Shown here piece after piece: positions 6,737 to 64,000 of a stretch of 64,000 bases of DNA; position 1 is the stretch's first letter, and every line of letters begins with the position of its first letter. A model generated the notes under the pieces. The model worked only from the letters and a program-made list of their open reading frames with translations. It was not told the DNA's origin and searched no databases. The position numbers and the translations under genes are program-made. The stretch covers positions 1 through 64,000 of IMG/VR virus record IMGVR_UViG_3300020045_001434; one strand, 5' to 3'. This DNA comes from a virus.

Positions 6737-7298
6737 AATTACTTTTGATATTGGTCATTGTGATAGTTGTGATATATCCGTTAATTGTCATTTCGTTCCT
6801 AGTAGGAGCGAGGGTGTAGGATATTCGTTGATGTATATAACATCATCTCCTACAAGTAGTGAATATAAAAATGGTTTATGTACTAGTAAAAAACATAAAA
6901 TTATTAGAGATTTTGATACTCAATTTAATTTTAATTCTTATTACACTTCTATTGTAAAATGTATTGGAGCTAGTATATTATTCGATCATGAAATTAATGA
7001 ATGCAATAAACATCTTAGAAAAGAATTATTTATAGTTCAACCTAAAGTTATTATTACTATTGGAGATATTCCTACAAGACAATTCTTAGAATATAATTTC
7101 TTTAAAGAAGTAGTAAATAAACCTAATATTCTTACATTAAATAATAAAGAAGTTATTATATATCCTATTTATAGTCCTACATATTTTGGTAAAAATAAAG
7201 AAGATTCTATAGAATATTATAATAACTCTTTTATATTTATAGCTAAACTTTATAAATCTTTTATTGATACTAATTATTTTAATATTTTATTATTATGA
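6720..7298 (+). CDS. uracil-DNA glycosylase family 4-like protein (degenerate active-site motifs)
   Basis: CDSC, YYTSIVKC, EINECNKHLRKELFIVQPKVIITIG, YPIYSP. Fe-S cysteines are kept, but the GEAPG and HP motifs are altered. Confidence 0.75.
   Translation: MISTNKITFDIGHCDSCDISVNCHFVPSRSEGVGYSLMYITSSPTSSEYKNGLCTSKKHKIIRDFDTQFNFNSYYTSIVKCIGASILFDHEINECNKHLRKELFIVQPKVIITIGDIPTRQFLEYNFFKEVVNKPNILTLNNKEVIIYPIYSPTYFGKNKEDSIEYYNNSFIFIAKLYKSFIDTNYFNILLL
6798..6831 (+). repeat. dispersed 34-bp motif, copy 1
   Basis: CCTAGTAGGAGCGAGGGTGTAGGATATTCGTTGA; inside the UDG gene, sense strand. Confidence 0.9.
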
Positions 7299-7435
7299 AA
7301 GAAAAAGATGAATCTAATTATAATGGATGTTCTTTATTATTTATAACTATTGTATTAGCTATATTAATAGGTTTATCTCAAATACCTATAGTAAAAGAAT
7401 ATGAACATAAATATAATCAAATAGATGAACCATGA
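7295..7435 (+). CDS. small single-TM protein (46 aa; not in the ORF track)
   Basis: MKEKDESNYNGCSLLFITIVLAILIGLSQIP...; ATGA overlaps at both ends. Confidence 0.6.
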   Translation: MKEKDESNYNGCSLLFITIVLAILIGLSQIPIVKEYEHKYNQIDEP

Positions 7436-9738: not shown

Positions 9739-11237
9739 TTAATAATTTTCAATTAGATCCAACAAAAAGTGCTAGACAAGAGAAAGGTATAAATATTTGG
9801 AAAGAACATGGTTATAGAGGTACATTAAATTATATTATGCGATTTGGTAAAACTCGCATTATTGAACTTGTATGTCAAAAAATTAAAATAAATCCTAATC
9901 ATAACGATAAACGAATATTAATATTAGTTCCTACTGAAATAGCTTTAGAAAACGTAAAATATATATGTAATACTTATAATGTAGAATCATATACTTATAA
10001 TGCGTATTTTAATCTTATTCAAGAAGAACCTAATCAAGAATGTTTTGTTTTAATAATTGATGAGATTCATAAGTTTCTTTCTGATAAAGCTATAAATTTA
10101 ATATTAAAAACTAAAGCTAAATTTAAGTTAGGATTAACTGGTTCTAAAATTGATTCTAATGGTAAAAATAATTTAAAACGTATTGGATTTCCTATAATAG
10201 ATATTATTACAGAAGAAGAAGCTATCGAAATGAATTGGATAACTGATTATGATGAATATAATGTTGCTGTAGAAATATCTGATAATCAAAAACAAACATA
10301 TAAATCTTTAAATGATAATATTGATAGTATAGGTATTAATTTTAAATATATATATACTAAAGTAAATACTGCTTTTTGTAGAACTATATTTAAAAATGAT
10401 TATGAAGTTATTCAAAGTTGTTATTCAGGTAAGAAAGTTTTTGATAGTAATTTTAAACTATTAGAATTTATTAGACCTGATGTTATGAGAGAAATTGTTG
10501 CTGCATTAATGGGATATGAACATGGATTTATTATAACTAATAATCATGAACGTACTATTCAGACTTATTGGAATCCTGATAATATAGAAGCTGTTTCTAA
10601 ATCATATATTAAATCTGTTACGGCAAGAAATAATTATATGAAACATAATATCAATAAAGTAAATGCTGTTTTAGCTATGTCTAAAAAGATTAATAGACCT
10701 ACTATAGTATATAATGATAGTATTGAAATGATAGACCAATTATATTCTACTCTTTCAGTACCTAGAGTTAAGTATCATAGTTCTATGGAATCAGTACCTA
10801 TGACTTATGATAATGGTGAATTTATTACTTATCTTAGTGGAGATAAAAAAGGTCAAGTCAAATTATTTGGTAAGACGACCATTAAGAAGCAAGCTATTGA
10901 ACGAATTAAGTCAGGACAAGCATTATATCTAATCACTGGTAAAAGTCTGTCAGAGAGTCTGAATTTGCCTAACATAGAGTTTATTATATGTACGTCAGGG
11001 GACACAAATGCAACCACTTATGACCAAAGAGTTGCTAGAGGTAAGACAATTGATAATAATAATGCTGATAAACGGTGTACTATAATCAATATTTTTATAG
11101 ATGATTTCTATTTAAATGGTGAGTTTATTCGCTCTAGGGATAAAGAAAAGCTTATAAGTAGGCAATCTAATATAAAAAATGTTATTTGGTTAGATAATGT
11201 TGAAGAATTGTTTGGTACTATCAATAATATTTTATAA
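9735..11237 (+). CDS. superfamily 2 (DExH) helicase
   Basis: MRFGKT, ILVPT, IIDEIH, LGLTGS, SESLNLP, QRVARG. Confidence 0.85.
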   Translation: MINNFQLDPTKSARQEKGINIWKEHGYRGTLNYIMRFGKTRIIELVCQKIKINPNHNDKRILILVPTEIALENVKYICNTYNVESYTYNAYFNLIQEEPNQECFVLIIDEIHKFLSDKAINLILKTKAKFKLGLTGSKIDSNGKNNLKRIGFPIIDIITEEEAIEMNWITDYDEYNVAVEISDNQKQTYKSLNDNIDSIGINFKYIYTKVNTAFCRTIFKNDYEVIQSCYSGKKVFDSNFKLLEFIRPDVMREIVAALMGYEHGFIITNNHERTIQTYWNPDNIEAVSKSYIKSVTARNNYMKHNINKVNAVLAMSKKINRPTIVYNDSIEMIDQLYSTLSVPRVKYHSSMESVPMTYDNGEFITYLSGDKKGQVKLFGKTTIKKQAIERIKSGQALYLITGKSLSESLNLPNIEFIICTSGDTNATTYDQRVARGKTIDNNNADKRCTIINIFIDDFYLNGEFIRSRDKEKLISRQSNIKNVIWLDNVEELFGTINNIL

Positions 11238-11242
11238 ATTTG
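11211..11242 (+). promoter_or_regulatory. Bacteroidota sigmaA-type promoter
   Basis: TTTG (11211-11214), a 20-nt spacer, then TAAATTTG (11235-11242), matching TTTG-N19-21-TAnnTTTG. The ATG follows at 11247. Confidence 0.55.
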
Positions 11243-11246
11243 CACT

Positions 11247-12203
11247 ATGATAAACGGAGAGAAAAACACATCAGCTCAAATTTCTAAAGTTACATCTAGT
11301 TATATAGATGTTGCTAAATTTGAAGAACTAGAACTTCTAGTTGCTAAACTCAAAGATTCTACACTGGCAACCCAGTTTAATGAAAAAGTATATGACAAAG
11401 ATGAAGATGGAAATATTATAGAATCTACTGAAAGATTAGTTTTTAATTCTGCTGATATGATAATGTGTCTTGGACTTGGTGCTGAACTTGGTATGAGTCC
11501 TTGGGAAGCATTATCTTATGGTAAATCATTAAATCTTACATCTATTAAGAAGATTCGTAAAGGTGAAAAGATGGGTCTTGATTTTGCTACTTCACTTGAA
11601 CAAATTTATGTTTGGGGTAGTGGTGGTAAAGAAATTATTTATACATCTATTCATGTTGTTAGTACAGTACTAACTAAAATTGGAGTTCTACAAGAAGTTA
11701 TTCAAAATGGTAAAACTCCAATTTACAAATGTGTTGATGCTAATACAGAAAAAGAAATTAATTTTGATGCTTCAAAACATTATCCTATTCCTAGAATAGA
11801 TAATCCTGATGTATTAAAAGAAGTTATTGATGGAGTTCTTGAAAAAAGAATGACACCAGTTTATAAATCTGCTAAACCTGTTTATATTGGTGAAGTTAGA
11901 CTTACAAGATATAACAAAATTTTAAAACAAAATGAAGTTATATCAATTCCTTATTCTTCTCAAGAAGCTATTGATGCTGGATTACTTAAAGGTATTAATT
12001 CTGATGGAGAATCTGTAAAAGGTAAAGATAATTGGAATGCTCATCCATCAGTGCATCTACTTAAAATGTCTAAAATGATTGGTGCTAGAATGATAGCATC
12101 TGATGCACTTCAAGGTATTTATGTAGGAGATGAAATAAATCAAATTAAAAGTACAGCAGATATTGATAATACTATCGAAGATGCTGAAATAATAGAAGAA
12201 TAA
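11247..12203 (+). CDS. RecT/Redbeta-like single-strand annealing protein
   Basis: GAELGMSPWEAL; YSSQEAIDAGLL...KDNWNAHP..L.KM...GAR....DALQGIY resembles the RecT-family C-terminal core. Confidence 0.65.
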   Translation: MINGEKNTSAQISKVTSSYIDVAKFEELELLVAKLKDSTLATQFNEKVYDKDEDGNIIESTERLVFNSADMIMCLGLGAELGMSPWEALSYGKSLNLTSIKKIRKGEKMGLDFATSLEQIYVWGSGGKEIIYTSIHVVSTVLTKIGVLQEVIQNGKTPIYKCVDANTEKEINFDASKHYPIPRIDNPDVLKEVIDGVLEKRMTPVYKSAKPVYIGEVRLTRYNKILKQNEVISIPYSSQEAIDAGLLKGINSDGESVKGKDNWNAHPSVHLLKMSKMIGARMIASDALQGIYVGDEINQIKSTADIDNTIEDAEIIEE

Positions 12204-12265
12204 TAAATTAGTTTAAAATATATTCAAACATTCAATCATTCAAACTTATAAAAAATTAAACATTT

Positions 12266-12937
12266 ATGAAACCATCTCAAGAAGTTGCCCCTAAATCAAA
12301 ATTCTCTTTATCTATGGATGCTACTAGTGATATTGTAGCTGTAAAATCTGGTGAAAGAGTATGTAATGATACACTTCCAACTATTGAAACTGCATCTCAA
12401 ATTAATAAATTTCGTATTAATAAATTAGCATCTGAAGTTCTTGGTGTAACTCCAGGTATGCGTATTAAAATTCTTGTTACTAAATCAACTGCAATGGATG
12501 GTAAATATCTTGTTGTTGTTGCTCCTGATACTGATGGTTCATCTGCAAAAGTTGCTTCTGCTGCTGGTAAAGATGGTTACGGTTCTATGCTATTTAATTA
12601 TGCCGGTATTTGGTCACGTATGACTCAAGCTACTGTAGATGCTCTTGAACTTGGTGGAGAAGCTTTTGTTGAACAAGGTGTTGCAGTTAGTCGTTCTAAT
12701 ACTTATTATATCGACCATAAAACTATTTATGAAGTAGTTGAAGTTGATAACTATAACGAAGCTAATCCTTTAGTAGTTAATGCTGCTACTGGTGAATCTT
12801 ATTCTAAAGTATTTGCTTTGGTAAATGCTAAAAAAGAAGATGTTGATATTACTAAAGAAGCTGCTCCTCGTAAAGCTAAAGTAACTGAAACTCCTACAGA
12901 CGGAAACGACCAAGACGGAAACGACCAAGAAGCATAA
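12266..12937 (+). CDS. conserved replication-module protein (possibly ssDNA-binding), acidic C-tail
   Basis: Strongly biased codon use; located between the SSAP and SSB-like genes; tail DGNDQDGNDQEA. Confidence 0.5.
   Translation: MKPSQEVAPKSKFSLSMDATSDIVAVKSGERVCNDTLPTIETASQINKFRINKLASEVLGVTPGMRIKILVTKSTAMDGKYLVVVAPDTDGSSAKVASAAGKDGYGSMLFNYAGIWSRMTQATVDALELGGEAFVEQGVAVSRSNTYYIDHKTIYEVVEVDNYNEANPLVVNAATGESYSKVFALVNAKKEDVDITKEAAPRKAKVTETPTDGNDQDGNDQEA
12899..12928 (+). repeat. 15-bp perfect tandem duplication
   Basis: GACGGAAACGACCAA x2, encoding DGNDQ x2. Confidence 0.9.
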
Positions 12938-12985
12938 TATTAAAATATTGCTATAAAGTTTAGTATAAATTCATTCAATCATTAT

Positions 12986-13013
12986 AGGGAATTATTAGCG
13001 ATAATAGTTCCCT
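12986..13013 (+). terminator. GNRA-capped hairpin (terminator or processing site)
   Basis: AGGGAATTATTA-GCGA-TAATAGTTCCCT followed by TATTTT. Confidence 0.55.
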
Positions 13014-13039
13014 TATTTTATCTAAAATAATTAATTAAA

Positions 13040-13870
13040 ATGGCTGATTTAAATAAAATTGCATTTGGACAAGTTGAAACTGTTGTAGAATCTAGACTTA
13101 ATTTTAAACCTGATTTAGCTATTGCAGATGGTATCTGTATGGCAAATATTGTAAGTGTTGAACTTGTAGAACATGATGTACCTAAAGCTAATGCTGATGG
13201 TGTTCCTTCTACTTGGGAATTTGCTGGATTGAAAACATATAGTTTAGACATAACCTATAAGCAAATTAATCCTAATGCCAAAGATGCTTCTGAAAGATTC
13301 TTAGTACAAAAGGAAAGTATTGTTTCCGCTAAAATGTCTAATGGAGATTCATTAGAAGTAAAGACTTGGAATAGTCTTATTATGAATACTTTTAATCGTT
13401 TACAACATGTTGTAAATGCTCTTGATAAAGGTGGTATTTTACCTAAATCTAAGAATATTGGTGATGTAAATATTTCATTTGATGATTCTGCTGAAATGCG
13501 TATTAGTAAAATGAAGAAAGTATTTGAACACTTTTATCTTCAATTAACTGGTAATCCTGCATTTCCTAAAGCTGATTACGTTCCAGTTAAACCTCGTTAT
13601 GAAGGAGTTGATTTATGGCTTAAAGTTATTGCTGATGTAAAAACTAATAAGTTCTATAAAGTTCCTGATTATGTTCAAAAAGGTTTTGTTGAAGTAATGA
13701 AAGCTGGTGCAGCTTCTATTCTTGAATTAGCTCCTAATGATAGTATCGTTCTTGTAAAAGGAAAAGCTGATACTAAAACTAAAGATGCTAATTATAAAGA
13801 CGTTGATGCTGAGCCTGCTACTACAGCTCCAAAATCTGCTGCTGAAATTCTTGCAGGTTTGAGAAAATAA
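13040..13870 (+). CDS. putative single-stranded DNA-binding protein (crAss-like)
   Basis: Position upstream of primase, OB-like beta-rich N-terminus, low-complexity C-tail, high-expression codons. Confidence 0.45.
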   Translation: MADLNKIAFGQVETVVESRLNFKPDLAIADGICMANIVSVELVEHDVPKANADGVPSTWEFAGLKTYSLDITYKQINPNAKDASERFLVQKESIVSAKMSNGDSLEVKTWNSLIMNTFNRLQHVVNALDKGGILPKSKNIGDVNISFDDSAEMRISKMKKVFEHFYLQLTGNPAFPKADYVPVKPRYEGVDLWLKVIADVKTNKFYKVPDYVQKGFVEVMKAGAASILELAPNDSIVLVKGKADTKTKDANYKDVDAEPATTAPKSAAEILAGLRK

Positions 13871-13891
13871 ATAATATAGTTTTATATATAG

Positions 13892-13928
13892 AAGTCCTAA
13901 TACCTTAATTGGTGTTAGGACTTTTTTT
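13892..13928 (+). terminator. rho-independent terminator
   Basis: AAGTCCTAATACC-TTAATT-GGTGTTAGGACTT plus T-tract. Confidence 0.85.
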
Positions 13929-13939
13929 ATTAATATAAT

Positions 13940-14995
13940 ATGAATATAACTTTAAAAGATAAAATACTTTCGTTATCTCAAGAAAAGATATATTCTATGT
14001 ATTTCGATATTCCTATACACGATATAACTTGGTCTACTATTCATAATAGTAATAAATTACATAATCCTTTTAGACAAGATAATGATCCTTCATTATCTTT
14101 TAGATGGTTTGGTAATAAACTTATAGTACGAGATTGGGGAGATTCTACTTGGAATGGAGATGTATTTAAAATAGTAGGCTACATATTAAATAATAATTGT
14201 TTTATTAATGATCAATTCGTTTTTATATGTAATGACATTTTGGAAAGATATTATAATGGTAATAAACGTGTAGTATATAATGAAGAATACGATGTTATTC
14301 GCAAAGCAAAAGTAATTACTACTATTGATACTAAAACTAGATTATTACAAAAACGTGATTATAATTTTTATAATCAATTTTGTATAGTAAATAAAACAGT
14401 TGATACATTTGTAAATTCTGTAATGCGATATAGTGTAAATGATGTTCTTACAGGATATAGAAATGCTTATAAAGACCCTTGTTATCAATATACAGTTAAT
14501 CATTATTTTACAAAACTTTATTTTCCTAATAGACACCATAAATCAGTATATCCTAGATTTGTTACAAATAATGTTTTACAGATTGATGATATAACTGATA
14601 TAATTCCTTCACAAGATAAACTAATTGTCAAGTCTATAAAAGATAAAATGTTATGTCTTCAATTATTAGATTCTTTATCTATTCCTCAAACTGATATAGC
14701 TATTCATACAGCTAGTTCTGAAACAGAAACTTTTAAATCTGATATATTAAGTTTGCTTAGAAGTAATACAAAATATAATATATATAGTTTATTTGATTCT
14801 GATAAAACTGGTTTAAAAAGTATGCAAGAATTAGAAAGAACTTGTAATATACAACCTATTATTTTTAGCAATGATGCTAAAGACCCTACAGATTATGCTA
14901 GAGATTTTGGTTATGGTAAAACTATTAATACTTTTAAAAGTGTAATTCTACAAATACATAGTAATAGAACAAACTTTATAAATCCTCTTATATGA
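13940..14995 (+). CDS. DnaG-type DNA primase (crAss-like)
   Basis: NPFRQDNDPS...VRDWG N-terminal domain; TOPRIM LFDSDKTG; KDPTDY. Confidence 0.82.
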   Translation: MNITLKDKILSLSQEKIYSMYFDIPIHDITWSTIHNSNKLHNPFRQDNDPSLSFRWFGNKLIVRDWGDSTWNGDVFKIVGYILNNNCFINDQFVFICNDILERYYNGNKRVVYNEEYDVIRKAKVITTIDTKTRLLQKRDYNFYNQFCIVNKTVDTFVNSVMRYSVNDVLTGYRNAYKDPCYQYTVNHYFTKLYFPNRHHKSVYPRFVTNNVLQIDDITDIIPSQDKLIVKSIKDKMLCLQLLDSLSIPQTDIAIHTASSETETFKSDILSLLRSNTKYNIYSLFDSDKTGLKSMQELERTCNIQPIIFSNDAKDPTDYARDFGYGKTINTFKSVILQIHSNRTNFINPLI

Positions 14996-15417
14996 TATTT
15001 CAACTAACTGATATGGTAGTTACAAAAGAAACTCCCGTAGATAAATATGCTTTTATACCAATTACTAAAGAACAGTATTTAGTATTTGATAATTTTAATT
15101 CTCAGTATCATAATGGTATAATTACTAGTGATACATTTATTGAAAAATTTGGTTATTCTCCATTAGCTTTTGTACTACATGGTGAAACTGCTGGTGCTGA
15201 TTCAGAAATGATTAAACCATATATTGATTGTGTTGATGTAAAAGAAAGTGAAATTCATACACATAGAAAATCTTATAAATGTTTTTGTGGTGCTAAATTT
15301 GGATTAGATTATACTAAACAAGTATTACATGGAACAGCATTTGATGCTTGGAATTGTTTACTTACATTTTGTAATAATCCTAAATATGGTATTATTCTTA
15401 ATCTTAGATATATATGA
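14992..15417 (+). CDS. hypothetical protein
   Basis: 141-aa ORF with ATGA overlaps. Confidence 0.65.
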   Translation: MIFQLTDMVVTKETPVDKYAFIPITKEQYLVFDNFNSQYHNGIITSDTFIEKFGYSPLAFVLHGETAGADSEMIKPYIDCVDVKESEIHTHRKSYKCFCGAKFGLDYTKQVLHGTAFDAWNCLLTFCNNPKYGIILNLRYI

Positions 15418-16685
15418 AAAAACAATTTGAAGATATTAAAAATAAATATAATAAAATATATTTATTTAAACGAGATATTGCTGGTAATGTAATATATTGG
15501 ATGGCTAATGTAAATACTGATTTAGTAGGTATTTTCTTTTATCATGGAAGAATACATTCCGATTTTATCAATGATGTTAATAAATCTAATAGAATTATTG
15601 ACGAAGGTACTAATATAGGAAAATCTAATGAAACTACTCCTTTAGAACAAGCTTACAAAGAACTTGAATCTGAATATAAAGATCATATTAAAAAAGGTTA
15701 TAAAGAATATGCTCCTAATGGATTACAATTACATCTGACTATTACAGATTTACAAAATATTAATTTTATTGAAAGCATTGTAGATAAAACTAATACTGAT
15801 GCTTTAGGTTTTGCTAAACCTATGAAATGTCAAAAATTTGCTTTAGGTAAATATAGATACCCAGTTATAGCTCAACCTAAATATAATGGTGTAAGATGTA
15901 CTGTTTCTAAAGATTTATTTAATAATGATATGTTTAATACATGTCCAGTATTATTACTTTCTAAAGAAGGAGTTAAATATAATGTATTACATTTATATGA
16001 AGCTCTTTATAAAACTTTAGAATATCTTGAATCTATAGGTATTAATAATCCTGTGTTAGATGGTGAGTTATATATTCCTAATATTCCTGTTACAACTATT
16101 AGTGGAGCTTGTAGAAATTCTGATAATCCTTATAACAAACAATTACAATATGTAATTTTTGATTTATCTATTGAAAATTATACTCAAAAGGAAAGATTAA
16201 AATTTGTAGATAGTATTCCTTTTATATATCATTTAAATGATTATAAAACGCCTTTAGTTTATAAAAGTAGATTTAAACTTATCAATAATGATGAAGAATC
16301 TATTGAATACTTAGATGAATGTTTAAAAGCTGGATATGAAGGTTCTGTAAATAGAGAATTAGAACAAGAATATGCTTTTGGTCAACGTCCTATGTTTATG
16401 CGTAAACTAAAGAAATTTAGTGATGCTGAATTTGAAATATTAGATATTATACCTTATGGAGATAGAAGTCAAACTGTAGGTGTTGGATGTAAAATTATTT
16501 GTAAAAATGATACAACGGATGGTACATTTGAAGTTACTCCATTAGGTAATACAGAATTTAGATTACGATTAGTAGATGAAAAAGATTTACTTATTGGTAA
16601 AATGGCTACAGTTAAGTTTTATGAAAGAACTATTACTGACTTACCATTTCATGCTAATGTTATATCTATTAGAGATTATGAATGA
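15414..16685 (+). CDS. ATP-dependent DNA ligase
   Basis: QPKYNGVRC (motif I), LDGELY, IFDL, GYEGSV, KLKK, C-terminal OB fold. Confidence 0.92.
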   Translation: MKKQFEDIKNKYNKIYLFKRDIAGNVIYWMANVNTDLVGIFFYHGRIHSDFINDVNKSNRIIDEGTNIGKSNETTPLEQAYKELESEYKDHIKKGYKEYAPNGLQLHLTITDLQNINFIESIVDKTNTDALGFAKPMKCQKFALGKYRYPVIAQPKYNGVRCTVSKDLFNNDMFNTCPVLLLSKEGVKYNVLHLYEALYKTLEYLESIGINNPVLDGELYIPNIPVTTISGACRNSDNPYNKQLQYVIFDLSIENYTQKERLKFVDSIPFIYHLNDYKTPLVYKSRFKLINNDEESIEYLDECLKAGYEGSVNRELEQEYAFGQRPMFMRKLKKFSDAEFEILDIIPYGDRSQTVGVGCKIICKNDTTDGTFEVTPLGNTEFRLRLVDEKDLLIGKMATVKFYERTITDLPFHANVISIRDYE

Positions 16686-16686
16686 T

Positions 16687-16720
16687 GCAACGAATCTCAT
16701 TAACCCTCGCTCCTACTAGG
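16687..16720 (-). repeat. dispersed 34-bp motif, copy 2
   Basis: Reverse complement reads CCTAGTAGGAGCGAGGGTTAATGAGATTCGTTGC; intergenic. Confidence 0.9.
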
Positions 16721-16749
16721 GAGTAGTAACAATTTAAAATAATTTTATT

Positions 16750-17862
16750 ATGGCACATGAATTAGAATTTAATTCTAGTAGAAATACACATTCATTTTTT
16801 AGTAGAAAAGAAGTTGCTTGGCATGGTTTAGGTCAAGTTATAGAACAAGCTGTTAACCCTGAGGAAGCATTAAAACTTGCTAATCTAGATTATACTGTAG
16901 AACTTAAACCTATTTGGGCTAACTTTATTCCTGATGGATGCATAGCTAGAGGTAATGAACCTTATTTAGAATTGTATGAAAAAGATACTAATACCTTTAG
17001 AGGAGAATTACAAAAACGTGGAGTATTAATTCCTACACATAAATCTGTATGTCGTATGGATAATTATCAATCTATTGGTGTTGTAGGTAATAAATATACT
17101 CCTGTTCAAAATATAGAATCATTAAATTTTATATATAATCTTTTAAAACTAAATCCTAATATTAAAGAGCGTAATGATATTATTATCGAAACTGCTGGAG
17201 TATTAGGTATTGGTGAAAGAATATTTGTTACTGCAAAATTACCTAAAGGATTTACTGTAGGTGAAGAAAAAGAAGGTACAGAATTATATATTGTATTTAC
17301 TAATTCTCATGATGGTAAATCATCATTAACGGCATTAATTACTCCAGTTAGAGTTGTATGTAATAATACTTTAAGTGCTGCATTAGGTAATAATAAATCT
17401 AAAGTATCTTTTATGCACACTGCTAATATTCATAATTCTATGAGGGAAGGTGCTAGTCTTTTAAACTTAGCATATACTAATTTTGAAAATAATCAAGAAC
17501 TATATAATGCTTTAAGTCATATTAAAGTTGATGTAAATATGATTGATGAACTTATTTGTAGAGCTATGCTTAATGATAATCAATTATTACAAGTATCTAA
17601 AGTTGGTTTAAGCAACACATCTATAGATATTATATCTACTCGTACTCGTAATGTTATGTTAGATATGAGAGAATATATTGATATGGGTTGTGGTCAAGAA
17701 ACTAATAGAGGTACAGCTTATTGGGCTTATATGGGCATTAATAGTTATATTAATAATGGTACTACATTTAAAGATTCAAATAATAAATTTGATAATCTTT
17801 TAGGAGGTACTGCATCTAAATTAGATAGTAAAGTATTAGAAACTGTAAAACAATTATTATGA
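16750..17862 (+). CDS. DUF932 family (phage/plasmid-like) protein
   Basis: AWHGLG, YTPVQN, ETAGVL..GERIF, NSHDG, TPVRVVCNNTL. Confidence 0.88.
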   Translation: MAHELEFNSSRNTHSFFSRKEVAWHGLGQVIEQAVNPEEALKLANLDYTVELKPIWANFIPDGCIARGNEPYLELYEKDTNTFRGELQKRGVLIPTHKSVCRMDNYQSIGVVGNKYTPVQNIESLNFIYNLLKLNPNIKERNDIIIETAGVLGIGERIFVTAKLPKGFTVGEEKEGTELYIVFTNSHDGKSSLTALITPVRVVCNNTLSAALGNNKSKVSFMHTANIHNSMREGASLLNLAYTNFENNQELYNALSHIKVDVNMIDELICRAMLNDNQLLQVSKVGLSNTSIDIISTRTRNVMLDMREYIDMGCGQETNRGTAYWAYMGINSYINNGTTFKDSNNKFDNLLGGTASKLDSKVLETVKQLL

Positions 17863-18176
17863 TTAAAGTTAATCCTAAAAATAAACCTAAGTATAATGTT
17901 GATAGACGTGAGCTAATTAAACATAATATTGTAGATTTAGAAATTAAAGCTAAAGACCTTTTAATAAACATAGTTCGTAGATATACTACTCCAGTTAATG
18001 CTAATTTATTTATATTTCAAAAGAAAACTTTAAATGAAGTTGGTATATGTAATGGAGTAAGTATTTTAATTGATAAAGATTTAAAACAATTACATCCTGA
18101 ACTATGTATATTATCTAGTGACACAATTGATAAATTTATTAGTGATATTAATCGTGATTTTAAATTTGTAAAATGA
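17859..18176 (+). CDS. hypothetical protein
   Basis: Overlapping-stop operon ORF. Confidence 0.6.
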   Translation: MIKVNPKNKPKYNVDRRELIKHNIVDLEIKAKDLLINIVRRYTTPVNANLFIFQKKTLNEVGICNGVSILIDKDLKQLHPELCILSSDTIDKFISDINRDFKFVK

Positions 18177-18373
18177 ACGGAGTATTTGTTATTAATAATA
18201 CTAGATGGAATACTAAAGTATTTTATACTATAGATGAAACTAATAAGTTTCTTTTAGATAATCCTGATTATAGTCTTTTAGATGCTAATGATGAACTTAA
18301 AGTTTATCATTGTGCTTTAAAAGATGATGATGGTGAAGTTCATGACCCTAAATTAAATAAATATATAAAATGA
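18173..18373 (+). CDS. hypothetical protein
   Basis: Overlapping-stop operon ORF. Confidence 0.6.
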   Translation: MNGVFVINNTRWNTKVFYTIDETNKFLLDNPDYSLLDANDELKVYHCALKDDDGEVHDPKLNKYIK

Positions 18374-19320: not shown

Positions 19321-19323
19321 ATC

Positions 19324-19491
19324 ATGGTAAAATATATAATAACTATAGAAGTAGAAGAAAAAGTTTCTACTTCTATTAAATTCCGTAAATATTTACTTAC
19401 TGTTAAAGAAGAACTTCTAAGATTTAGTTATTGGAGAAATAATAAACTTATTGATATTAAAAGCACTATTAAAATAACAACAGATGAATAA
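19324..19491 (+). CDS. small hypothetical protein (55 aa; not in the ORF track)
   Basis: MVKYIITIEVEEKVSTSIKFRKYLL...; fills the gap exactly. Confidence 0.5.
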   Translation: MVKYIITIEVEEKVSTSIKFRKYLLTVKEELLRFSYWRNNKLIDIKSTIKITTDE

Positions 19492-20014
19492 ACCCCTTAG
19501 TGAAATTCAAGCTGAATTAAAAGTTTGGACATTATATAATTTTGGTCAACAAGAATCTATTATACCTATTATGGGTATGATAGAAGAACTTGGTGAACTT
19601 ACTCATGCTCATTTAAAAGAACTTCAAGGTATTCGTAAAAGTGATTTCTTAGCTGATAAGAAAGATGCTATTGCAGATATAACTATTTATCTTTTAAATT
19701 ATTTTAATTGTATTGATAAAGATGTTTCTTTAATTGGTAGTAATGAACATTTAGATAGTTATATATATCATAATGATTCTACTAATATGATAATACTTAA
19801 ATTATCTTATAATATAAGTAATATAGGACATTATACATTTAGTGCTGAAAATATTATTAATTTAGCTATAAGCAAATGTTCTAAAACTTTATATTTATTA
19901 TCTTATTATGCTCTATTATATAATTTTGATTTACTTACTATTGTAAATGAAACTTGGGAAAATGTAAAACTTAGAGATTGGAAAAAATATCCTTTAAATG
20001 GAATATCTGAATGA
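19484..20014 (+). CDS. MazG-like nucleotide pyrophosphohydrolase
   Basis: EELGEL and DAIADITIYL all-alpha NTP-PPase motifs; C-terminal W..V..RDW. Confidence 0.82.
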   Translation: MNKPLSEIQAELKVWTLYNFGQQESIIPIMGMIEELGELTHAHLKELQGIRKSDFLADKKDAIADITIYLLNYFNCIDKDVSLIGSNEHLDSYIYHNDSTNMIILKLSYNISNIGHYTFSAENIINLAISKCSKTLYLLSYYALLYNFDLLTIVNETWENVKLRDWKKYPLNGISE

Positions 20015-20479: not shown

Positions 20480-20507
20480 ATTCATTAGTATTCCGGCACG
20501 ATAATTT

Positions 20508-20550: not shown

Positions 20551-20557
20551 TTATATT

Positions 20558-21319: not shown

Positions 21320-21328
21320 TCTAGTATT

Positions 21329-26853: not shown

Positions 26854-26887
26854 ACAACGAATATCATTCATCCTCGTACCTACTAGA
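26854..26887 (-). repeat. dispersed 34-bp motif, copy 3 (diverged)
   Basis: Reverse complement reads TCTAGTAGGTACGAGGATGAATGATATTCGTTGT; intergenic. Confidence 0.82.
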
Positions 26888-28806: not shown

Positions 28807-28840
28807 CCTAGTAGGAGCAAGGGTGCAGGACATCCGTTGC
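28807..28840 (+). repeat. dispersed 34-bp motif, copy 4
   Basis: CCTAGTAGGAGCAAGGGTGCAGGACATCCGTTGC; intergenic. Confidence 0.88.
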
Positions 28841-43861: not shown

Positions 43862-46800
43862 TTAGCAAAGTATTTCGTTGTTATCATCTCTATGATTTGC
43901 TTTCTCTGTAAAGATAAACTTATTATCTGACATAACCAAATCTGAACTTAAAATAGTTGAAGCCCTAGGTTTCCTTTGAGGTCTAACTTTTTCAGTTACT
44001 ATTGGTTCAGTAATATCAGTAGTTTCAGTTGTTACTGTAGGAGTTACTTTAATAGTTTCATTTAATTGACTATAATAATCAGATAATATATCTTTAGCTA
44101 TCTTAGTATAGTTTTCATTTGATACTTTAAAGTTATAACTAGAACCTAAAGCATTCACAATATTATTATACATTTTAATAATATAATCTATAAATTTATC
44201 TAAGAATGTTTCATTAGTTGTTTCTCTTTCATATTTATAAGAAGGTTTAACAACACTTAATACACTCATAATATATGGATTAGTCATATATGTAAATAAC
44301 TCTTGAGCCATTTGATCACTAACAAATTCAGTATTATCTCCTTTTTTAGATATTCTTTCTAATTCATTTTTTACTTGACCTATAAAACCAGTAATAGTAC
44401 TTTGTACAAATGTAATATCTTCTGTACCAAATATTTTTAATAGTTCATTAGCTGCTGCAACATTTGGTACTAAATCAGATTTGTAAAAATACTTATTAAA
44501 GTCATTTTCAAAAGATTCTATAAATTCAGATACTAGATTATTGTTTTTAGTAATTAAAGCTTTTTTAGCTATATCATCTAATTTAGAAAATTCAGTTATA
44601 GAAGTTAGAATAGCATGATAATGTTCATGTATCATAGTAACAAAAGGATTATACATAAGATTCTTACTTTTGGCAGTTGCTATAAATCTATCTCTGTATG
44701 TCAATCTAAAATTAATAGTAGATGGTGATACTGATACAGGAACTATATCTGCTAATGTGTCAGCAACATTTCGTTCACCATAATTTTCAATAGTAACATC
44801 TTCTTTAATTTCATCTCCTAATATTCTTTGAAGTTCTATAACTCCATTAGCTAAAGGTAATACTTCAGGATTAGTATATTGAATTAAATTAGATACAATA
44901 GCAATAGGATTTTCTATAATACCTTTTTGTATAGATGTAACATTTACTAAATCAATTCCTATTTTTAATCCTGCTCCATTTATTAAATCCAAATTACTAA
45001 GATTTTTAATATTACCATTTGAATCTTTACGAGTAATAACATCTACATTATTATATAAACCATCAGTATCTAAAGCATATTTAATAGCTCCATTAGATGT
45101 TTCATTATTATATTCTACTCCAGTAATAGGGTCAATGAATGTAGATTCATTATTAGCGAATATCATTTTACCTTTTTCATCATATTTATTCTGACGTAAT
45201 AGATTATTTATAGGTTTATATACTTCATGATTTAAAACACTATTTATAAAATCATCACTATAATTAGCAACAGCTTTATCAATATTATCATTCATACTAG
45301 ATATATCAACATTTACATTATTCAAATCTCCTAATGCTGAACTAATAGCTTTATTATAAGATTCTTTATCTAATATACCATTTTTAGTATATTTTGCTGC
45401 TAACTTAATTGGATTTATTGTTAGATTATATGCTTTAAATTCTTTACCTCTAACACCTAATTCTTCTGTAATAACTATTTTATGAAATATAAATTCATCT
45501 ACTCCAAAAGCTGTAGTTTCAGGATTTAAACTTTTAAATTTAATAGTTTGTTCTAATGAAAGTCCATCTTTAGATTTAAAAATATCATGAGAAAAATAAG
45601 GGTATGATGCTGAGTCATTAGAACCTTGTCCTATAATAATAATATTAGCTAATCCTGATTGAGATATAGATTCTTTAAGTGTAGTAGATATAGTATCACG
45701 TCTATCTTGAACTTCAGTTGCTGCGCTACGAATGTCATTGTCCCTCGCTCCTACTTGGTATGTATAAGCTGGACTAACTAATTCATTAACTTGTTTGATA
45801 TTATCTAAAATAGTTTTAGTAACCCATTTAATAGCTTTAGGATTACCAGTACTGGTTTTATTATAATCAGCACCATCTCCTACATTAGTATAACTCTTTT
45901 CTAATGTATTAGTCTTTAATGGAAAATGAGATACTCTACCATCAGTACTAGGGATAAGCATATACATACCTTCTTTACCTGATTGGTATATCTTAGATAA
46001 TTCAAAATCATTATATATTTCTCCAGTTTCAGCATTCTTTAAAATACCATTTTTATATATAATAATTGGGACACTACTTTTACCATTAACTACAGATTGT
46101 GTGATACTATCTTTAATAGATTTAAACTTTGCTTTATTAGGTTTAATTAATATAGATGGCATTGATATTTCAGATATAGCAGCTTTACTAGTTTTTGATT
46201 CAGCAAGTAAAGATTTTGTGTTATTATACTTATCTAATTTATCTTTAGTAATAGTATCAAAATTATTAATATTATTTGTAATAGTATTATAAGAAGGTTT
46301 AAAAGAATCTATATAATTAATATGTTGACCATAAAACATTATATTTAATACAGCTTCAATTGTAGGAATATTATGTTCTAACGTTGCATTATTATCTTTA
46401 TTAGTTATATTAAACAAGTCTATAAGTTCTCTAATAGAATTAAATATTTCAGAATCAGTATTTTGAATATCTTTAATAGCTTGATAATACCTATCTTTAG
46501 AATATTGTTTATCCTTATCACTTCTATTAGTTGAATCTTTAGTTAGTTTATGTTTATATAATTGTTTTAAAGATTCTAATATACTTAAATCAGTATTAGC
46601 AAATTTAGTTTGTAATAAAGTTTTAAATCTAGGATTATCAATCAAATCTTTAAATCCTTTATAATCATCGTTATTATTTACTAAAGTCAAATCTCCATAG
46701 TTATTAGCTATATTAGACATAATAGCTATAGGTATTGGGAGTAAATCATGTATAACTTCTATTTCGTTTTTACTATTTAATTGTAAAGTTATATTATCAT

Positions 46801-49800
46801 TAGATTTAATTTGAGATATAACATCATAAATAGTATTAGATTCTTCAGTTATAACTCCATCAATCATTTCAACATCTAAGGCTGTAGGATTAATTTCAGT
46901 GTATATTAAAGAAGTATTTTCTAATTGTTCAGTAGAATATTCGTTTAATACTTTAGATATATAATTACTACTATCAGATTTATTATATTTACTATCAATA
47001 TTAATAGCATTAAATTGATTTAGTAAATGATAATATCTACTACGATTATCATATCTAGCGCCTTCAATATTAGCATCACTCCATTCAATATATTCTCTAA
47101 TCTCACCTTTACGATAAGGCATTAAATAATTAGGATTTTCAACTTCACGATTTATAGTTTGTTTACCTTTAGGAGTATCAATTGTCTCGGTAGTAGTTAT
47201 TAATTTATCAGTATCAATATAAACATTATTCCCACTATTAGTTCTTTCAATAGCTAATATATTATTTAATTGATAGTTTAAATCATTTTTAATAGCTTCA
47301 AATATATTAGGTAATGTAGCTAATAATTTATTTAAATCTTTAGGTTGTTTATTAGTATTAGCTTCTGAATCATTTTGAATATTATAAGAATCTATCACAA
47401 TAGTAATAACATCTTTGAATGTAAGTTCATATTCATTATTATAAGTTTTATACTTTTTAAAATCTAATAATTTTTGAACTAATAAAACTTTATCATTAAT
47501 ACTAGATAAAAGACTATCATATTTCTCTACAGATAACGAAGCATTATTAATAAGTCCTAATATTTCACCAGATAAAACCCTAAGTTTAGGACTACTATTT
47601 TCAAGTATTGAAGCTGCTTTAGAAGTTAAACCTTTATGAGTATTTAATAATTGAAGTTCATTATTATTAAATATATCTTGCAAATAAGGTTTAATATTAG
47701 CAAATTCTTCATTAGCATTATAAGAAGTATTACCTTTTTGAATATAAATTTTAGATAAATCTTCAACAGCTGCTTTAGTAAACATAACATCCCATAGTTG
47801 TTCAAATGTCCATCTATATTGAGAATCTAGAACTACTCCTTCAAGACTCTTTTGTTGAATGTAATTAGACACTAAAAACTCATATAATTTACTAATAACT
47901 AAACCATTAGTTCCATCAATATTATTAGTAAAACTAAATACACCACCAATCATAGACCTAAGATTTTTAAGTCCTTGATTTTGGTCAGCATCAGATTTAG
48001 ATATTACATTATTGATTAAATCTAATACATCTGTATATCGTTTAGATAAATCATTTAATCCAGTAGTAGTTTTTAAATCTATACTTTCAGGGTCTTTAAT
48101 ACCTAACTTAGTTTTTAATGGTGTAATACCATCCGCAGCTATACCATCGAAAGCACTATCTGATGGTTTGAAAGTTATTATAGAATTATCATTTTGAGTA
48201 TCATAAAATATTTCTCCACGATTATTAGCTATTTGAACATTACTAAGAGCTTTAGTATTAATCATTTTATTAGCTAAACTAGCAGGTTCTATTTTAGATA
48301 TTTCTACTATAGATTTAGTACTAGCATTATTATAAGTTACATCAATTGGAATAATACCAACTTCAACAATATTAATATCTATATTAGGAATAAGTTTCTT
48401 TAATAAATAAGCATAAGTGTTTACTTGTGTAACAAATTTAGATAGATTAGATACTCGACTAAAGAATTTATTAGTTTTAAGTTGTTTAGATGTTTTTATA
48501 TCGTATATATAGACATTATTGTTACTGTCTAATAATAGTAAGTCAATAGTCCCTGCAACCCCTGACAGCTTGTCAAATAGCTTTATATTTGATGCTAGTA
48601 CTTTTAAACCTTTAGCATTAAATTGTTGCTCTAAGCTCTCTAAATAGCTTATAAAATTATCGAATACTTCATTATTTGTAAAACCATAACTACTATTACT
48701 TTTAAGATTAGTTTTATCAGTAAAGAAATCTCTAATTAAAATATCAACTTGATTACCTACATCACTTCCTCTATCATGTTTATTAGATTCAGAAAATGCT
48801 TGTCGTTCTTCAACAGACATTTCATCCATTTTTAAACTACTAGCACTAGATGTATTTTGAACAGTTTCTCCTTTATAATTATATTTATGAGTAGCTTCAT
48901 TAAATTCAATACTATTAGATAATTTTTCTATAGCTCTTGAAAGTTCTGTATCTACAAATTTTCCTGGAAGTGTTTTACTTACATTATTAATATTTACATC
49001 AGTGTCTTTTCCATTAATCTCAAGTATAACAAATTTGTTACCTTTAAAACCTTTAATTGGATAAGTAATTTGTGTCATACCTTTACCAGACTTAGCATAA
49101 ACATTATCTCCAACATTAAAAGATTCATTATTATTAGATAATGTTGTAACTATATTTGTAGCATCCCCAGTAGAGGCGAGGGTAGAGGAGATTCGTTGCT
49201 CAACTTCAACTTCACTTGTTACAATAGTTTCAGATTCAACTGGTATATTTTCTTCAGTAGTAATTTCAGGTTTAATAATAGTTTCTTGAACATTACTAAC
49301 ATTAGAATCTTTTTCACTATCATTCTTAATAGTTGCTACAAATTCTCCTTTACGTTTTTCAGCAAGATTTCTAATAGTTTCTGATACAGTAATTTGTTCT
49401 TTAGAACCTAGTTTATTTATCTTACTATCAAGATTTTTATTGTTAGATACATAACTACTTAATAAAGTATCAACGTCTTCTTTAGTTTTAGTCTTAGCTA
49501 GTTCAGATTGAAAATCAGATATAAATCTATCATTCTGAGATTCTATAGCAGCTTTATAAGCTTTTTGTTCATTAGCTAAACCATCTTTAGAGTTATAATA
49601 TTTTATATCAGATTCTAAAGAATTATTTTCATTACGTAAAACTTCAACTAAACTAGACTTATCTGTAAATATATTTCTAGCTTGTTTTTCAGTATTTAGT
49701 ATATGGTCAACATCATCTTTATAAGATTCTTTATTAGGTAATGAATTTATAGTTTGTTCATGTAAAGCATTAGTATCAAGAACTTGTTTTTGTTTATTAG

Positions 49801-61690: not shown

Positions 61691-62524
61691 TTATTTTTTA
61701 GGTTTTAATATATTTACATAAGGATACATTGTTTTAGAATAATCTTCATGATATCTATATATGTGAATAATTTTATCAAATAGACCTGTTTTAGTATTAT
61801 TTAGAAGTTCTGATATAGTATATATTTTAGTTAGTATTTTTCCGTAGATATTACCAAATGTACAAGGTACTAATCTATAAGGCGATTTATTGTGCAGTTT
61901 GGAGCTATGCTTTGACCACCTTAGCAATATAAAATCATCTCTATCTAAACCATTGTCTATAAGCCAAGCCTTGCCTAGAGGGTTGTTTCCGTCCTTTATT
62001 TGCTGTCCATTATCTATCAAATTCTGTTTAAACTTGATAGATTGCCCCCAATCAGGAATACTACTATCATAAGGAACTCTACCAATATAAACATTACCAA
62101 GTCTAGGATATTGAAAAGATTCTCCTTGTAATAAAAGTCTAGTTATTTCAAAATTAGTAGAATATAATACTACTTTAAAAATTACATAAGGTATCTTTTG
62201 ATAGAATACATAACTATTTAATTTTATAGTAAGTTTATTTATAATATCTATTCTACTTAATAAATCATTATAATTACTAATAAACAATTGTTCATTAATA
62301 TCTATGTTTATAAGTTCGATAGAAGTACCTTTAATTTTTAAATTAATTATATCATAAAGATTAATATTATATTTAATTAAATAATTATAATCTTTATCTA
62401 ATGTATAATAACTATTATATACTTGAGATAATAGTATATGAATTTCTTTAGTAAGATTACTTATTTGATTACTACATAAACTTATAAATTCTTTATGATA
62501 ATCATGAGTATTAAAATCTACCAT
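61691..62524 (-). CDS. crAss-like IHF/HU-related protein
   Basis: LLQGESFQYPRLGNVYI, PDWGQS, LRWSK, YRLVP; located between ring genes. Confidence 0.55.
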   Translation of the reverse strand: MVDFNTHDYHKEFISLCSNQISNLTKEIHILLSQVYNSYYTLDKDYNYLIKYNINLYDIINLKIKGTSIELINIDINEQLFISNYNDLLSRIDIINKLTIKLNSYVFYQKIPYVIFKVVLYSTNFEITRLLLQGESFQYPRLGNVYIGRVPYDSSIPDWGQSIKFKQNLIDNGQQIKDGNNPLGKAWLIDNGLDRDDFILLRWSKHSSKLHNKSPYRLVPCTFGNIYGKILTKIYTISELLNNTKTGLFDKIIHIYRYHEDYSKTMYPYVNILKPKK

Positions 62525-62527
62525 AAT

Positions 62528-64000
62528 TTATTCTTTTGTAACTTCTATATCTTTAGGTAATATACCAAATTCAACTTTTAATAATTCAGCTATAATAAAA
62601 TTCAACATCTCATTAGGAAATGGAAGTTCTAAATCTTGATTATCACTAATACCATAATAACCAATAACTTCTTCGGGATTTTCCCATATTCCTTCAACTT
62701 CTATTTCATCAATAATTTCAGTAGAATAAATATTATCATAATTCATTATACGCTTAACTGTTATAGTATTATTATCATAAGTGTATAATCTAGAACACCT
62801 AGTAGGAGCGAGGGTATAGGACATTCGGAACATAACTTTAGAACAATAACTAAATAGTTTACTAGTATTAGCTATACTAACTTTAGTAAATGGGCTATCA
62901 TTCTTAATATTCATTGGTGTAGGAATCTTTGTTGTACTAACAAAATCTACATAACGTTTATATAATGGATGTGTAACACTTGGTAATAAATTACTATTAA
63001 CCTGCCTTTTATTTTTTAAAATATTACCTATATTATTAGTTGTAATATCTGAATATGTAGTAATTAAATAATTAATCAATTGATTAAATTCAGTATATGA
63101 TGGAATACTCCATCCATCATTAATATCAATTAACTTATTTGAATTATTTATAGCATACCAATTATATAATCTACCATATGCGTTAATCATTAATTCTTCT
63201 GTAGTTAGTTCATCTATAGGTATAAATGATAAATCACTTTTGTTATAAACAGCACATGCTCCATCTACATCTATATTCCAATTTTCATTACTTAAATTTG
63301 TTGGTATTAATACACCATTTGTATAATGTGTTGTTTTTAAATTTGAAGTAGTCCAAACTTGAGAACCTATTTTTGTACCTGAATAAATATTTCCATCATA
63401 ATCAGTATAAGCATTCGAAATAATAGTTCCATCATTTAATAAATCTTCATTAAAAGTAGTTTCTCGTACTAATCTAATAGAATATCCAAAATTCTTTACT
63501 GTAGGATAATTTATTAATATAGAAGTATAATTATATAAAACAAATACAGTAGATGACGTGTCTATATTATCATTATTAGTATATAAATAAGAATAAAATC
63601 CTAAATTATTATATTCTCCCGAAGGATTTCTAGCCCCTGATGGTATAGCACTAAAATTAAATCTATCAACACCATATATAATAGGATTAATACTATCATT
63701 CCATCTAGGATGAGTATTTGTGTTAGACGGTATTGTATTATATTTAGAATCATTAACTCCTTTTATCCATCGTCCATTTTCAATATGTCCCCATATATTA
63801 TAAAGTTCATTTACAATAGCAGTTTCTTCAACTGGTGTTAATGTTATAAGTAATGGTATTTTATAATATCCTTGAATACCATTTTTATCTATACTTTGAA
63901 TTATGTATTTAGCAAAGTAATCTTTAATCATTTCTTTGATTCGTTCTTTCATAGAATGATTATCAGGTTGCCCAACAATGTGAGCAACCCGACTAGCATA
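62528..64000 (-). CDS. tail ring protein with inserted, circularly permuted FISUMP (Fib_succ_major) domain; true start lies beyond the window
   Basis: Frame stays open to 64000 (YASRVAHIVGQPDNHS-MKERIK); C-terminal IEVEGIWENPEEV...LPFPNEM ring-type motif; FISUMP motifs between about 62993 and 63715. Confidence 0.72.
   Translation of the reverse strand, partial: YASRVAHIVGQPDNHSMKERIKEMIKDYFAKYIIQSIDKNGIQGYYKIPLLITLTPVEETAIVNELYNIWGHIENGRWIKGVNDSKYNTIPSNTNTHPRWNDSINPIIYGVDRFNFSAIPSGARNPSGEYNNLGFYSYLYTNNDNIDTSSTVFVLYNYTSILINYPTVKNFGYSIRLVRETTFNEDLLNDGTIISNAYTDYDGNIYSGTKIGSQVWTTSNLKTTHYTNGVLIPTNLSNENWNIDVDGACAVYNKSDLSFIPIDELTTEELMINAYGRLYNWYAINNSNKLIDINDGWSIPSYTEFNQLINYLITTYSDITTNNIGNILKNKRQVNSNLLPSVTHPLYKRYVDFVSTTKIPTPMNIKNDSPFTKVSIANTSKLFSYCSKVMFRMSYTLAPTRCSRLYTYDNNTITVKRIMNYDNIYSTEIIDEIEVEGIWENPEEVIGYYGISDNQDLELPFPNEMLNFIIAELLKVEFGILPKDIEVTKE
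62798..62831 (+). repeat. dispersed 34-bp motif, copy 7
   Basis: CCTAGTAGGAGCGAGGGTATAGGACATTCGGAAC; coding, antisense (FRMSYTLAPTR). Confidence 0.88.

Follow-up and report, generated by a model that had tools for sequence, protein, structure and literature searches.

A dispersed 34-bp DNA word with lineage-specific spellings in a crAss-like phage and its relatives: candidate recognition sites of a strand-specific, phage-encoded factor

The first 64,000 nucleotides of IMG/VR virus record IMGVR_UViG_3300020045_001434 (the window; the genome as a whole is referred to as G000) contain dispersed copies of a GC-rich, non-palindromic 34-bp motif, in which two conserved blocks surround a variable 4-nt spacer. 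The source record is 90,928 bp long, has a G+C content of 26%, and carries a terminal repeat of 121 bp. The phage is crAss-like: Pfam CrAss_Ring_1 and CrAss_Ring_2 were both found, and the gene order was that of cr127_1 and p-crAssphage. At the level of sequence comparison, the word was shown to be a selected, position-specific, and lineage-specific signal on the DNA, which arose within existing codons through substitution rather than insertion. It is best read as a site on the DNA that a phage-encoded factor recognises in a strand-specific manner; this reader would most likely be a protein that covers approximately three helical turns of DNA. In the human gut, crAss-like phages rank among the most abundant viruses, and their replication, packaging, and transcription are little understood; a signal that two genes retain on the same codons despite divergence at the family level, and whose spelling shifts in step within each lineage, is strong evidence for an essential, unnamed cis-trans pair.

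Copies were searched for with the consensus given in the initial annotation, allowing up to three mismatches, and 100 dinucleotide-preserving shuffles served as a control. All of the seven copies claimed for the window were present (Table 1): six had three mismatches or fewer, with no match in the shuffles, and the copy at 26854(-) was genuine and weaker (five mismatches). The total for the genome was, however, eight, a further copy being located beyond the window at 84937(+), in a 1.15-kb gap where gene blocks diverge. As had been proposed, every copy aligned without gaps around a spacer that obeyed NNAK. In the position-weight scan of the whole genome that had been suggested, the eight copies scored at least 44 and everything else below 12, with no weaker copies, and an 11-mer census identified the motif as the main dispersed repeat family (just two unrelated 11-mers reached four copies). 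The motif strand reads as a run of C, then GTAG, then purines, and its complement as a pyrimidine tract, CTAC, and a run of G; the conserved blocks are approximately 10-11 bp apart. The flanks of the eight copies were unrelated to each other and AT-rich with ordinary composition, and the motif was not embedded in larger GC-rich islands. The copies at 26854 and 84937 had in common a "long form" of approximately 75 nt, with a flanking inverted repeat of 10 bp (CTAACGAATA/TATTCGTTG). A link between spacer subtype and strand held in G000 (5 vs 3), but not in the nearest lineage (G002/L132; see below).

The division of the window copies into three intergenic (16687, 26854, and 28807) and four coding ones (6798, 45725, 49166, and 62798), the latter in three frame/strand combinations, agreed with the initial annotation, as did the burden of rare codons. 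Each coding copy contained four to seven codons with a relative synonymous usage of 0.09 or less: AGG, AGC, GAG, TCG, and TTG in the UDG-like gene (copy 6798), and CGA, TCC, ACC, CTC, and AGG in the Ring2 gene (copy 62798). When Ring2, UDG, and the 2694-aa protein were aligned with their orthologues, no gap was found across the motif. Rare codons, the use of three frames, and the retention of the same codons despite amino acid changes together indicate that the constraint is on the nucleic acid and not on the protein, as had been argued. The anticipated excess of conservation at the coding copies was found only in part: the orthologous UDG copies did not exceed the remainder of the gene in raw identity (0.71 vs 0.70), but the core, the position, and GC-richness (0.47-0.50 vs 0.22) were kept. 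The CxxC N-terminus of the UDG-like protein was retained in the orthologue of the metagenome contig L132, so that the true start of this gene is 6720 and copy 6798 is therefore coding. The CxxC and the motif-A position are separated by 23 residues, a spacing that appears to equal that of canonical enzymes such as the family-4 UDG of Thermus and that also speaks against an insertion.

The nearest IMG/VR contigs were G002 (36 kb; capsid 86% identical) and G001 (28 kb; 79%), and L132, a 46-kb metagenome contig, encodes a ligase that is 62% identical. Five of the eight positions were in common with these three contigs. L132 has a copy on the UDG codons identical in position to window copy 6798, and another after the ligase gene, separated by 1 nt from the stop and by 29 nt from the next ATG, a spacing exactly as in the window. 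In G002, motif-like sequence was present at all three positions covered (the divergent junction, Ring2, and the giant gene encoding the 2694-aa protein in G000); at the last, aligned with 49166, block 1 (CCCAGTAGA...) was found together with a GC-rich stretch in a region of 28% protein identity. The residues aligned with Ring2 copy 62798 carry a copy in G001, G002, and the more distant genomes G017 and G019. The G001 lineage kept the Ring2 copy, lacked the one after the ligase, and had two copies elsewhere. Copy 26854 had no counterpart at the corresponding place in L132, whose gene order differs, and this, with the placement elsewhere of a unit consisting of a 74-aa open reading frame (ORF) and a DHH phosphoesterase gene, implies that sites are gained and lost. 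Its location at a breakpoint in G000 and its long form, as at 84937, raise the possibility of a recent duplicate tied to the rearrangement. The unit follows the genes at 25072-26841 in G000 and precedes their homologues in L132 (window 26854-28840 and L132 17617-21242 were compared).

Each lineage had its own spelling: ...AGCGAGGGT..GANATTCGTTGC in G000, ...AAYATGGG..CGACATYCGGTGR in G002 and L132, and CCTGGTAGG... in G001. Copies of one genome were more alike than orthologous copies between genomes. Because the flanks are unrelated, there is no substrate for gene conversion behind this concerted change, and a lineage's own spelling, common to all of its copies, suggests co-evolution of the sites with a trans-acting reader, which would be the simplest account. 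The genome-wide cis-acting site system envisaged in the initial annotation was supported, with the refinement that its reader would be lineage-specific.

The motif was also found in more distant relatives, again in lineage-specific spellings (G001, G002, L132, cr127_1, G017, and G019 in all). The GenBank genome cr127_1 (Kahucivirus, Crevaviridae; capsid 46% identical) has approximately ten copies of ...TAATGGCCACAAGGGCGAGAGGTGTTCCGAAATTCGT..., a word that has GCGAG..GG..GA.ATTCGT in common with the window motif and was absent from all other GenBank phages. Nine copies apiece occur in two complete IMG/VR genomes, spelled CCCGGTAGGGGAGTGGGTTGCRCGCCCAC... in G017 and CCCCAGTAGGGRA...GCGGAAC in G019. 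Copies coincided in the UDG alignment (residues 27-38 in G000, 38-49 in cr127_1, and 35-48 in G019) and in the Ring2 alignment (residues 374-385 in G000, 122-134 in G019, and 121-134 in G017), and the proteins bearing these aligned copies were merely 30-37% identical. For every copy in G000, cr127_1 had a same-orientation counterpart in an equivalent neighbourhood: that of copy 45725 lies in gp48 (42048-), and those of copy 28807 are situated where the + block ends or close by, at 28706-/28871+ in cr127_1 and at 31878- in G019. On the other hand, the 14-position core, at 12 or more matches, was not found in approximately 80 other IMG/VR loci collected by searches based on the major capsid protein and DHH, and matched close relatives only. 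No match was obtained in an exact-pattern scan of viral and genome contigs, which, given a lineage-private spelling, says little about hosts. Scans of viral contigs with the helicase and a segment of the 2694-aa protein found no relatives, and no comparable repeat family was detected in the 9-kb loci of relatives or in four other crAss-like genomes reached via the DHH gene. A search of 5.8 billion proteins added a single Ring2 homologue (P0003). G013, a crAss-like genome with 42% GC, has approximately 19 copies of a short word, CC(C)GCTATAG or CCGCTAAAG; most of them are on the same strand, and the word is unrelated in sequence to the motif.

Read on the complement, the core is CGCTCC-TAC-TAGG in G000, TCCCC-TAC-TGGGG in G019, and CTCCCC-TAC-CGGG in G017, with a more diverged form in cr127_1 (CCC-TTG-TGGCC). 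In the first 50 kb of CrAssphage ZA, a p-crAssphage-type genome, YYYTACGGGGG was matched 15 times with one mismatch or fewer, vs 0.39 expected, the word being spelled CTC-TAC-GGGGG. These matches were on both strands, and many were within the ranges of coding sequences (CDSs), including the polymerase, ligase, and RNA polymerase (RNAP) genes; according to their coordinates, seven were sense and eight antisense. The window motif is probably a longer, rarer dialect of this pyrimidine-tract/TAC/G-run signal. Both words have the core Yn-(C)TAC-Gn and occur on both strands and inside genes. They differ in that the p-crAssphage-type word has approximately 15 copies per 50 kb, many in ORFs and with no sense bias, whereas the clade of the window has only 8-10 copies per genome, bipartite and 34-45 nt long, of which half are intergenic, with a 2:1 bias toward the complement as the sense strand. 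At 28207-28315 of CrAssphage ZA, two copies on opposite strands lie approximately 100 nt apart just upstream of RepL, at the end of the replication block, an arrangement comparable to the inverted pairs of cr127_1 at 28706/28871 and 42048/42232. A literature search found no description of the motif, so that the earlier remark that no described element of this kind was recognised in crAss-like phages stands with regard to publications, but not with regard to this phage being alone, since homologous spellings exist elsewhere. To judge from the genomes compared, the signal extends from Intestiviridae to a Crevaviridae-like clade that includes cr127_1 and wastewater phages.

Position and orientation were analysed for 36 copies in four genomes (G000, cr127_1, G017, and G019) with simple ORF calls, which were crude in the relatives. 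Nineteen copies were intergenic, vs 6-8% non-coding DNA (p ~1e-9), and 17 were in genes. That half of the copies in this clade are intergenic and near gene starts narrows the possible functions. The sense strand was the complement of the motif in 22 cases and the motif strand in 12, and two copies were at block junctions. Orientation had been described as independent of transcription, and this was not fully so: the complement was sense in 22 of the 34 classifiable copies (binomial p = 0.12), and conservation extended to reversed copies (in four lineages for the UDG copy, and also the pair 45725/42048). Most of the sense-oriented intergenic copies were located 28-82 nt upstream of the next ATG (per-copy distances, read by eye), and several abutted the preceding stop. 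Copies were found at both divergent and convergent junctions. The strand split was 5 + / 3 - in G000 and 5 + / 5 - in cr127_1. The + copies were evenly spaced (P = 0.008 in G000 and 0.004 in cr127_1), the corresponding values for - copies being 0.44 and 0.08; values calculated by hand for G017 and G019 were approximately 0.07 to 0.2. The inverted pairs of cr127_1 mentioned above are close, at 165-185 nt.

As to function, we tentatively favour a reader that acts as a DNA enzyme specific for site and strand, and sites that are programmed single-strand interruptions (nick sites), a possibility suggested by analogy; some weight is left for an explanation not yet thought of. Nicks would then arise at the motif in replicating or packaged DNA and on both strands. 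Binding specificity would come from the long lineage-specific flanks, and the enzyme would act at the shared CTAC/G-run core. The proposal draws on a motif that is real and unique, acts at the DNA level, is free of indels, and is conserved in position with a concerted spelling, on the over-representation of the CrAssphage ZA word on both strands and often in CDSs, on the even spacing of + copies in G000 and cr127_1, and on traits in common with known nick systems: a short asymmetric consensus, conserved positions, and nickase-site co-evolution. The nick words are TACT/RTGMC in tf/LUZ24-like phages and CGAC-N5-CCTA/CTCCGG in phiKMV-like phages, their positions are similar among related phages, and co-evolution of nickase and site has been proposed (PMC3517423). 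As with the motif here, the nick motifs of T5/BF23, phiKMV-like, and tf/LUZ24-like phages are asymmetric, dispersed regardless of gene boundaries, and shifted in spelling between lineages. The phiKMV word is likewise bipartite with a variable spacer, and the complement core CCTACT-R-GG has CCTACT or TACT-R in common with the phiKMV and tf words.

Several points weigh against nick sites. The likeness to the tf and phiKMV words amounts to six letters and may be due to chance, and homology with the word of Intestiviridae (p-crAssphage-type) was deduced only from a short core. Known nick words are 7-19 nt long, whereas 34-45 nt are conserved here, and the sites of T5, phiKMV, and tf are all on one strand, whereas those of G000 are divided 5 + / 3 -. 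No nickase candidate was found with Pfam and PHROGs among approximately 30 proteins scanned, in which the PD-(D/E)XK domain of the 2694-aa protein was the sole nuclease or DNA-binding match. Moreover, the intergenic half of the copies, mostly 28-82 nt before starts and with the complement as sense, would also be explained by a transcription signal. With the same reserve, it is conceivable that Crassvirales, human-gut crAssphage included, have an undescribed strand-specific genome "punctuation": at fixed positions on either strand, a co-evolving phage enzyme would nick the DNA or start a new strand. The 34-45-bp spellings of the Crevaviridae type would then expose the full recognition site of this enzyme. 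The long bipartite form should make a pull-down of the reader feasible, and the question is directly testable on any cultured member phage by nick mapping, transcription-start mapping, and DNA pull-downs.

A transcription signal would take the form of a phage-specific promoter or specificity element, with the complement pointing to the gene, read by a phage RNAP or by a factor that redirects the host polymerase, in analogy with T7-group promoters or the hairpin promoters of the N4 virion RNAP; reversed copies would then drive conserved antisense transcripts. This is the main rival to nick sites, and we consider it unlikely, in spite of a number of features that fit it. The intergenic enrichment, the predominance of the complement as sense, and the short distance to the next ATG all agree with promoters, and, because copies often abut the previous stop, any extra spacing is always on the gene side. 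The structural operon is preceded by a copy at 84937, in G002, and at 82342 in cr127_1, and other copies stand ahead of the gene after Ring2, the primase gene (cr127_1), and the giant gene (cr127_1 42232 and G017 56401). Most lineages also show a small C/G hairpin whose loop is RGT(A). The promoters of T7, T3, and SP6 have a lineage-specific upstream part and a common gene-proximal core, and the motif is built similarly. In addition, the promoter families of T7/T3/SP6, N4, and phi14:2 resemble the motif in having 8-20 near-identical copies of an asymmetric 20-35-bp word with lineage-specific spelling, some of which overlap coding sequence, and the motif likewise precedes structural genes, the gene in the IHF-like position, and giant genes. 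True promoter families are, however, almost all co-oriented and intergenic, whereas one third of the copies here are reversed and half are in genes. In another crAss group, that of phi14:2, a different motif, the conserved, sigma-70-like middle-promoter motif, has some coding matches, and 116 of its 120 intergenic matches are in the sense orientation (10.1101/2020.03.07.982082). The orientation bias of the present motif is not significant, the reversed copies are conserved, and several in-gene copies lie 4-5 kb from any downstream start (49166; G019 49795), in accordance with the initial annotation, which had argued against a simple promoter family. No -10/-35 element or Bacteroidota -7/-33 element was visible, the probably homologous p-crAssphage-type word is often inside ORFs with no sense bias, and the fixed distance to the ATG may have the simple explanation that a GC-rich word must avoid the translation start.

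The strand specificity and dispersal of the motif, the even spacing of + copies, and the presence of copies at divergent and convergent junctions would also suit a replication or recombination signal read on one strand, such as ssi-like primase/primosome sites or Chi-like sites by which a nuclease or recombinase is held in check. The complement, mostly sense, would be the lagging-strand template if replication started at the divergent junction, as gene orientation and GC skew suggest, and the phages encode a primase, helicases, a polymerase, and a ligase. This explanation appears more doubtful than a promoter: eight sites in 91 kb are far too few for Okazaki priming, and Chi sites are 5-8 nt long, read by a host enzyme, and oriented to DNA ends, none of which fits. 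No better are the prospects of a phage DNA-binding regulator, for which the sites would be operators, polar roadblocks, or parS/matS-like elements of genome organisation. The C1 operators of P1 and the stoperators of mycobacteriophage L5 (cluster A) are asymmetric, genome-wide sites of 13-17 bp with one phage reader; they resemble the motif in their scattered asymmetric sites, co-evolving specificity, and an orientation partly tied to transcription. The lineage-specific spelling, the partial orientation bias with intergenic enrichment, the copies at transcription-unit boundaries and both block junctions, and the inverted pairs of cr127_1 (28706/28871 and 42048/42232), which a dimer could bridge, agree with a regulator. 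However, the sites of P1 and L5 are near promoters or in short intergenic gaps of temperate phages with a known repressor, whereas the motif is longer and has copies inside essential genes, where bound protein would block expression unless binding were timed. Lysogeny is not known in crAss-like phages, no repressor-like gene was seen among the approximately 30 proteins scanned (no search was aimed at a repressor or integrase), the motif lacks the palindromic form of parS and matS, and the p-crAssphage-type word, often in ORFs, has no orientation bias.

An element acting as RNA, be it a structured RNA, a network of a small RNA and mRNAs seeded by copy 28807, or inverted pairs that serve as RNase III sites, is very improbable. 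It is favoured by the 10-bp inverted repeat flanking copies 26854 and 84937, a 7-bp hairpin in the copies of G017 with neighbouring TTCG-loop GC hairpins of other sequence, and the inverted pairs of cr127_1. On the other hand, copies are in both orientations relative to mRNAs, no sequence complementary to the motif was found elsewhere in the genome, Rfam gave no match at any copy in G000, G017, or G019, and no fold common to the eight copies was found. The minus strand at 84937 had the sole notable fold z-score (-2.35; plus strand at 26854, -1.71), and RNAalifold returned an invariant hairpin with no compensatory changes. In the G017 hairpin, changes were all transitions that broke or wobbled pairs; in a G·U strand test, five favoured one strand and 3-4 the other, and this roughly even split indicates no compensatory covariation. 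GC-rich hairpins of differing sequence and the same shape, with TTCG loops, adjoin most copies in G017 (e.g., 22015-22085 and 92000-92070): GGCC-TTCG-GCC, GGGTG-CTTCG-CACCC, and GGGC-TTCG-CCC, the complement of the loop being CGAAG or GCGAAGC. A selfish or neutral repeat, either a miniature mobile element or a functionless product of gene conversion, is the least credible of all and was largely refuted. The motif is GC-rich in an AT-rich genome, the inverted pair 26854/28807 flanks a two-gene unit that is placed elsewhere in L132, and an extra copy in G001 is beside an extra small ORF. Against this, there was no indel relative to orthologues, the same codons were kept across family-level divergence, terminal inverted repeats and target duplications were absent, and homologous conversion would have no substrate in unrelated flanks. 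The initial annotation had likewise argued against a MITE (a miniature transposable element with inverted repeats), and the absence of indels upheld it.

Other known elements were compared with the motif and set aside. A MITE or an in-frame palindromic element of the Rickettsia RPE type was rejected on the Ring2, UDG, and 2694-aa alignments, which have no indels, and also on the lack of terminal inverted repeats and target-site duplications, the unrelated flanks, and the non-palindromic motif. A palindromic 13-16-bp site of the parS/matS type does not accord with an asymmetric motif; a mini-palindrome in the motif, CCTAGTAGG, was not kept in G001 (CCTGGTAGG) or G002 (CCCAGTAGG). Likeness to T3/T7 promoters (ATTAACCCTC) was found in one copy only, and just one lineage had an ECF-sigma -35/-10 arrangement (GGAAC-N16-CGT). 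The ops/RfaH element (GGCGGTAG), lambda boxA (CGCTCTTA), the vaccinia topoisomerase site CCCTT, loxP/gix-type sites, CRISPR-repeat mimics, a G-quadruplex, and a polypurine tract were dropped as unsupported or on the wrong strand. A guide RNA fails for the lack of other complementary sequence in the genome. Among the joints listed for contigs of four wastewater runs, 95-98% identical to the window and spanning three copies, none was at a motif, which says little for or against site-specific recombination; the 2694-aa ORF would be lost if the DNA from 45725 to 49166 were inverted.

Table 1. Location of the eight copies of the 34-bp motif in G000.
Copy	Coordinates (strand)	Location	Details
1	6798..6831 (+)	UDG-like gene 6720-7298(+)	residues 27-38; forward strand sense
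2	16687..16720 (-)	intergenic	1 nt past ligase stop (16685), 29 nt ahead of ATG (16750)
3	26854..26887 (-)	intergenic	40 nt upstream of 74-aa ORF 26928-27152; most degenerate
4	28807..28840 (+)	316-nt gap at convergence of gene blocks (28649-28964)	
5	45725..45758 (-)	2694-aa gene 43862-51946(-)	residues 2063-2074; forward strand sense
6	49166..49199 (+)	2694-aa gene	residues 916-927; antisense; poorly conserved linker
7	62798..62831 (+)	Ring2 tail gene 62528-63952(-)	residues 374-385; antisense
8	84937 (+)	divergent intergenic region	outside window

Several neighbouring genes were also annotated. The 4956-aa ORF at 28965-43835(-) had no sequence match in Pfam, PHROG, or PDB and no DFDxD motif; from synteny, it may be an RNAP, the RNAP gene of p-crAssphage holding the equivalent place. 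Its nearest relative among the loci compared was merely 36% identical. The gene at 61691-62524, previously described as IHF-like, gave no IHF match in Pfam and PHROGs scans, and no tRNAs were found. The Ring2 tail protein (62528-63952(-)) reaches 474-497 aa owing to a Fib_succ_major (FISUMP) domain inserted between its N- and C-terminal Ring2 parts, and the orthologues in G001, G017, and G019 (237-246 aa) are without this domain. In cr127_1, the DNA polymerase is annotated as two CDSs with a 620-nt gap (12271-15205), for which an intron, an intein remnant, or a frameshift is possible. Beyond the window, positions 84763-90928 of the genome consist of the 1.15-kb ORF-poor divergent region followed by + genes with long gaps (150-675 nt), which recall the highly transcribed early intergenic regions of phi14:2. 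The habitat of the phage probably includes sewage or wastewater beyond the sample of its assembly; contigs 95-98% identical to window 10000-29900 were found in wastewater metagenome runs of several studies.

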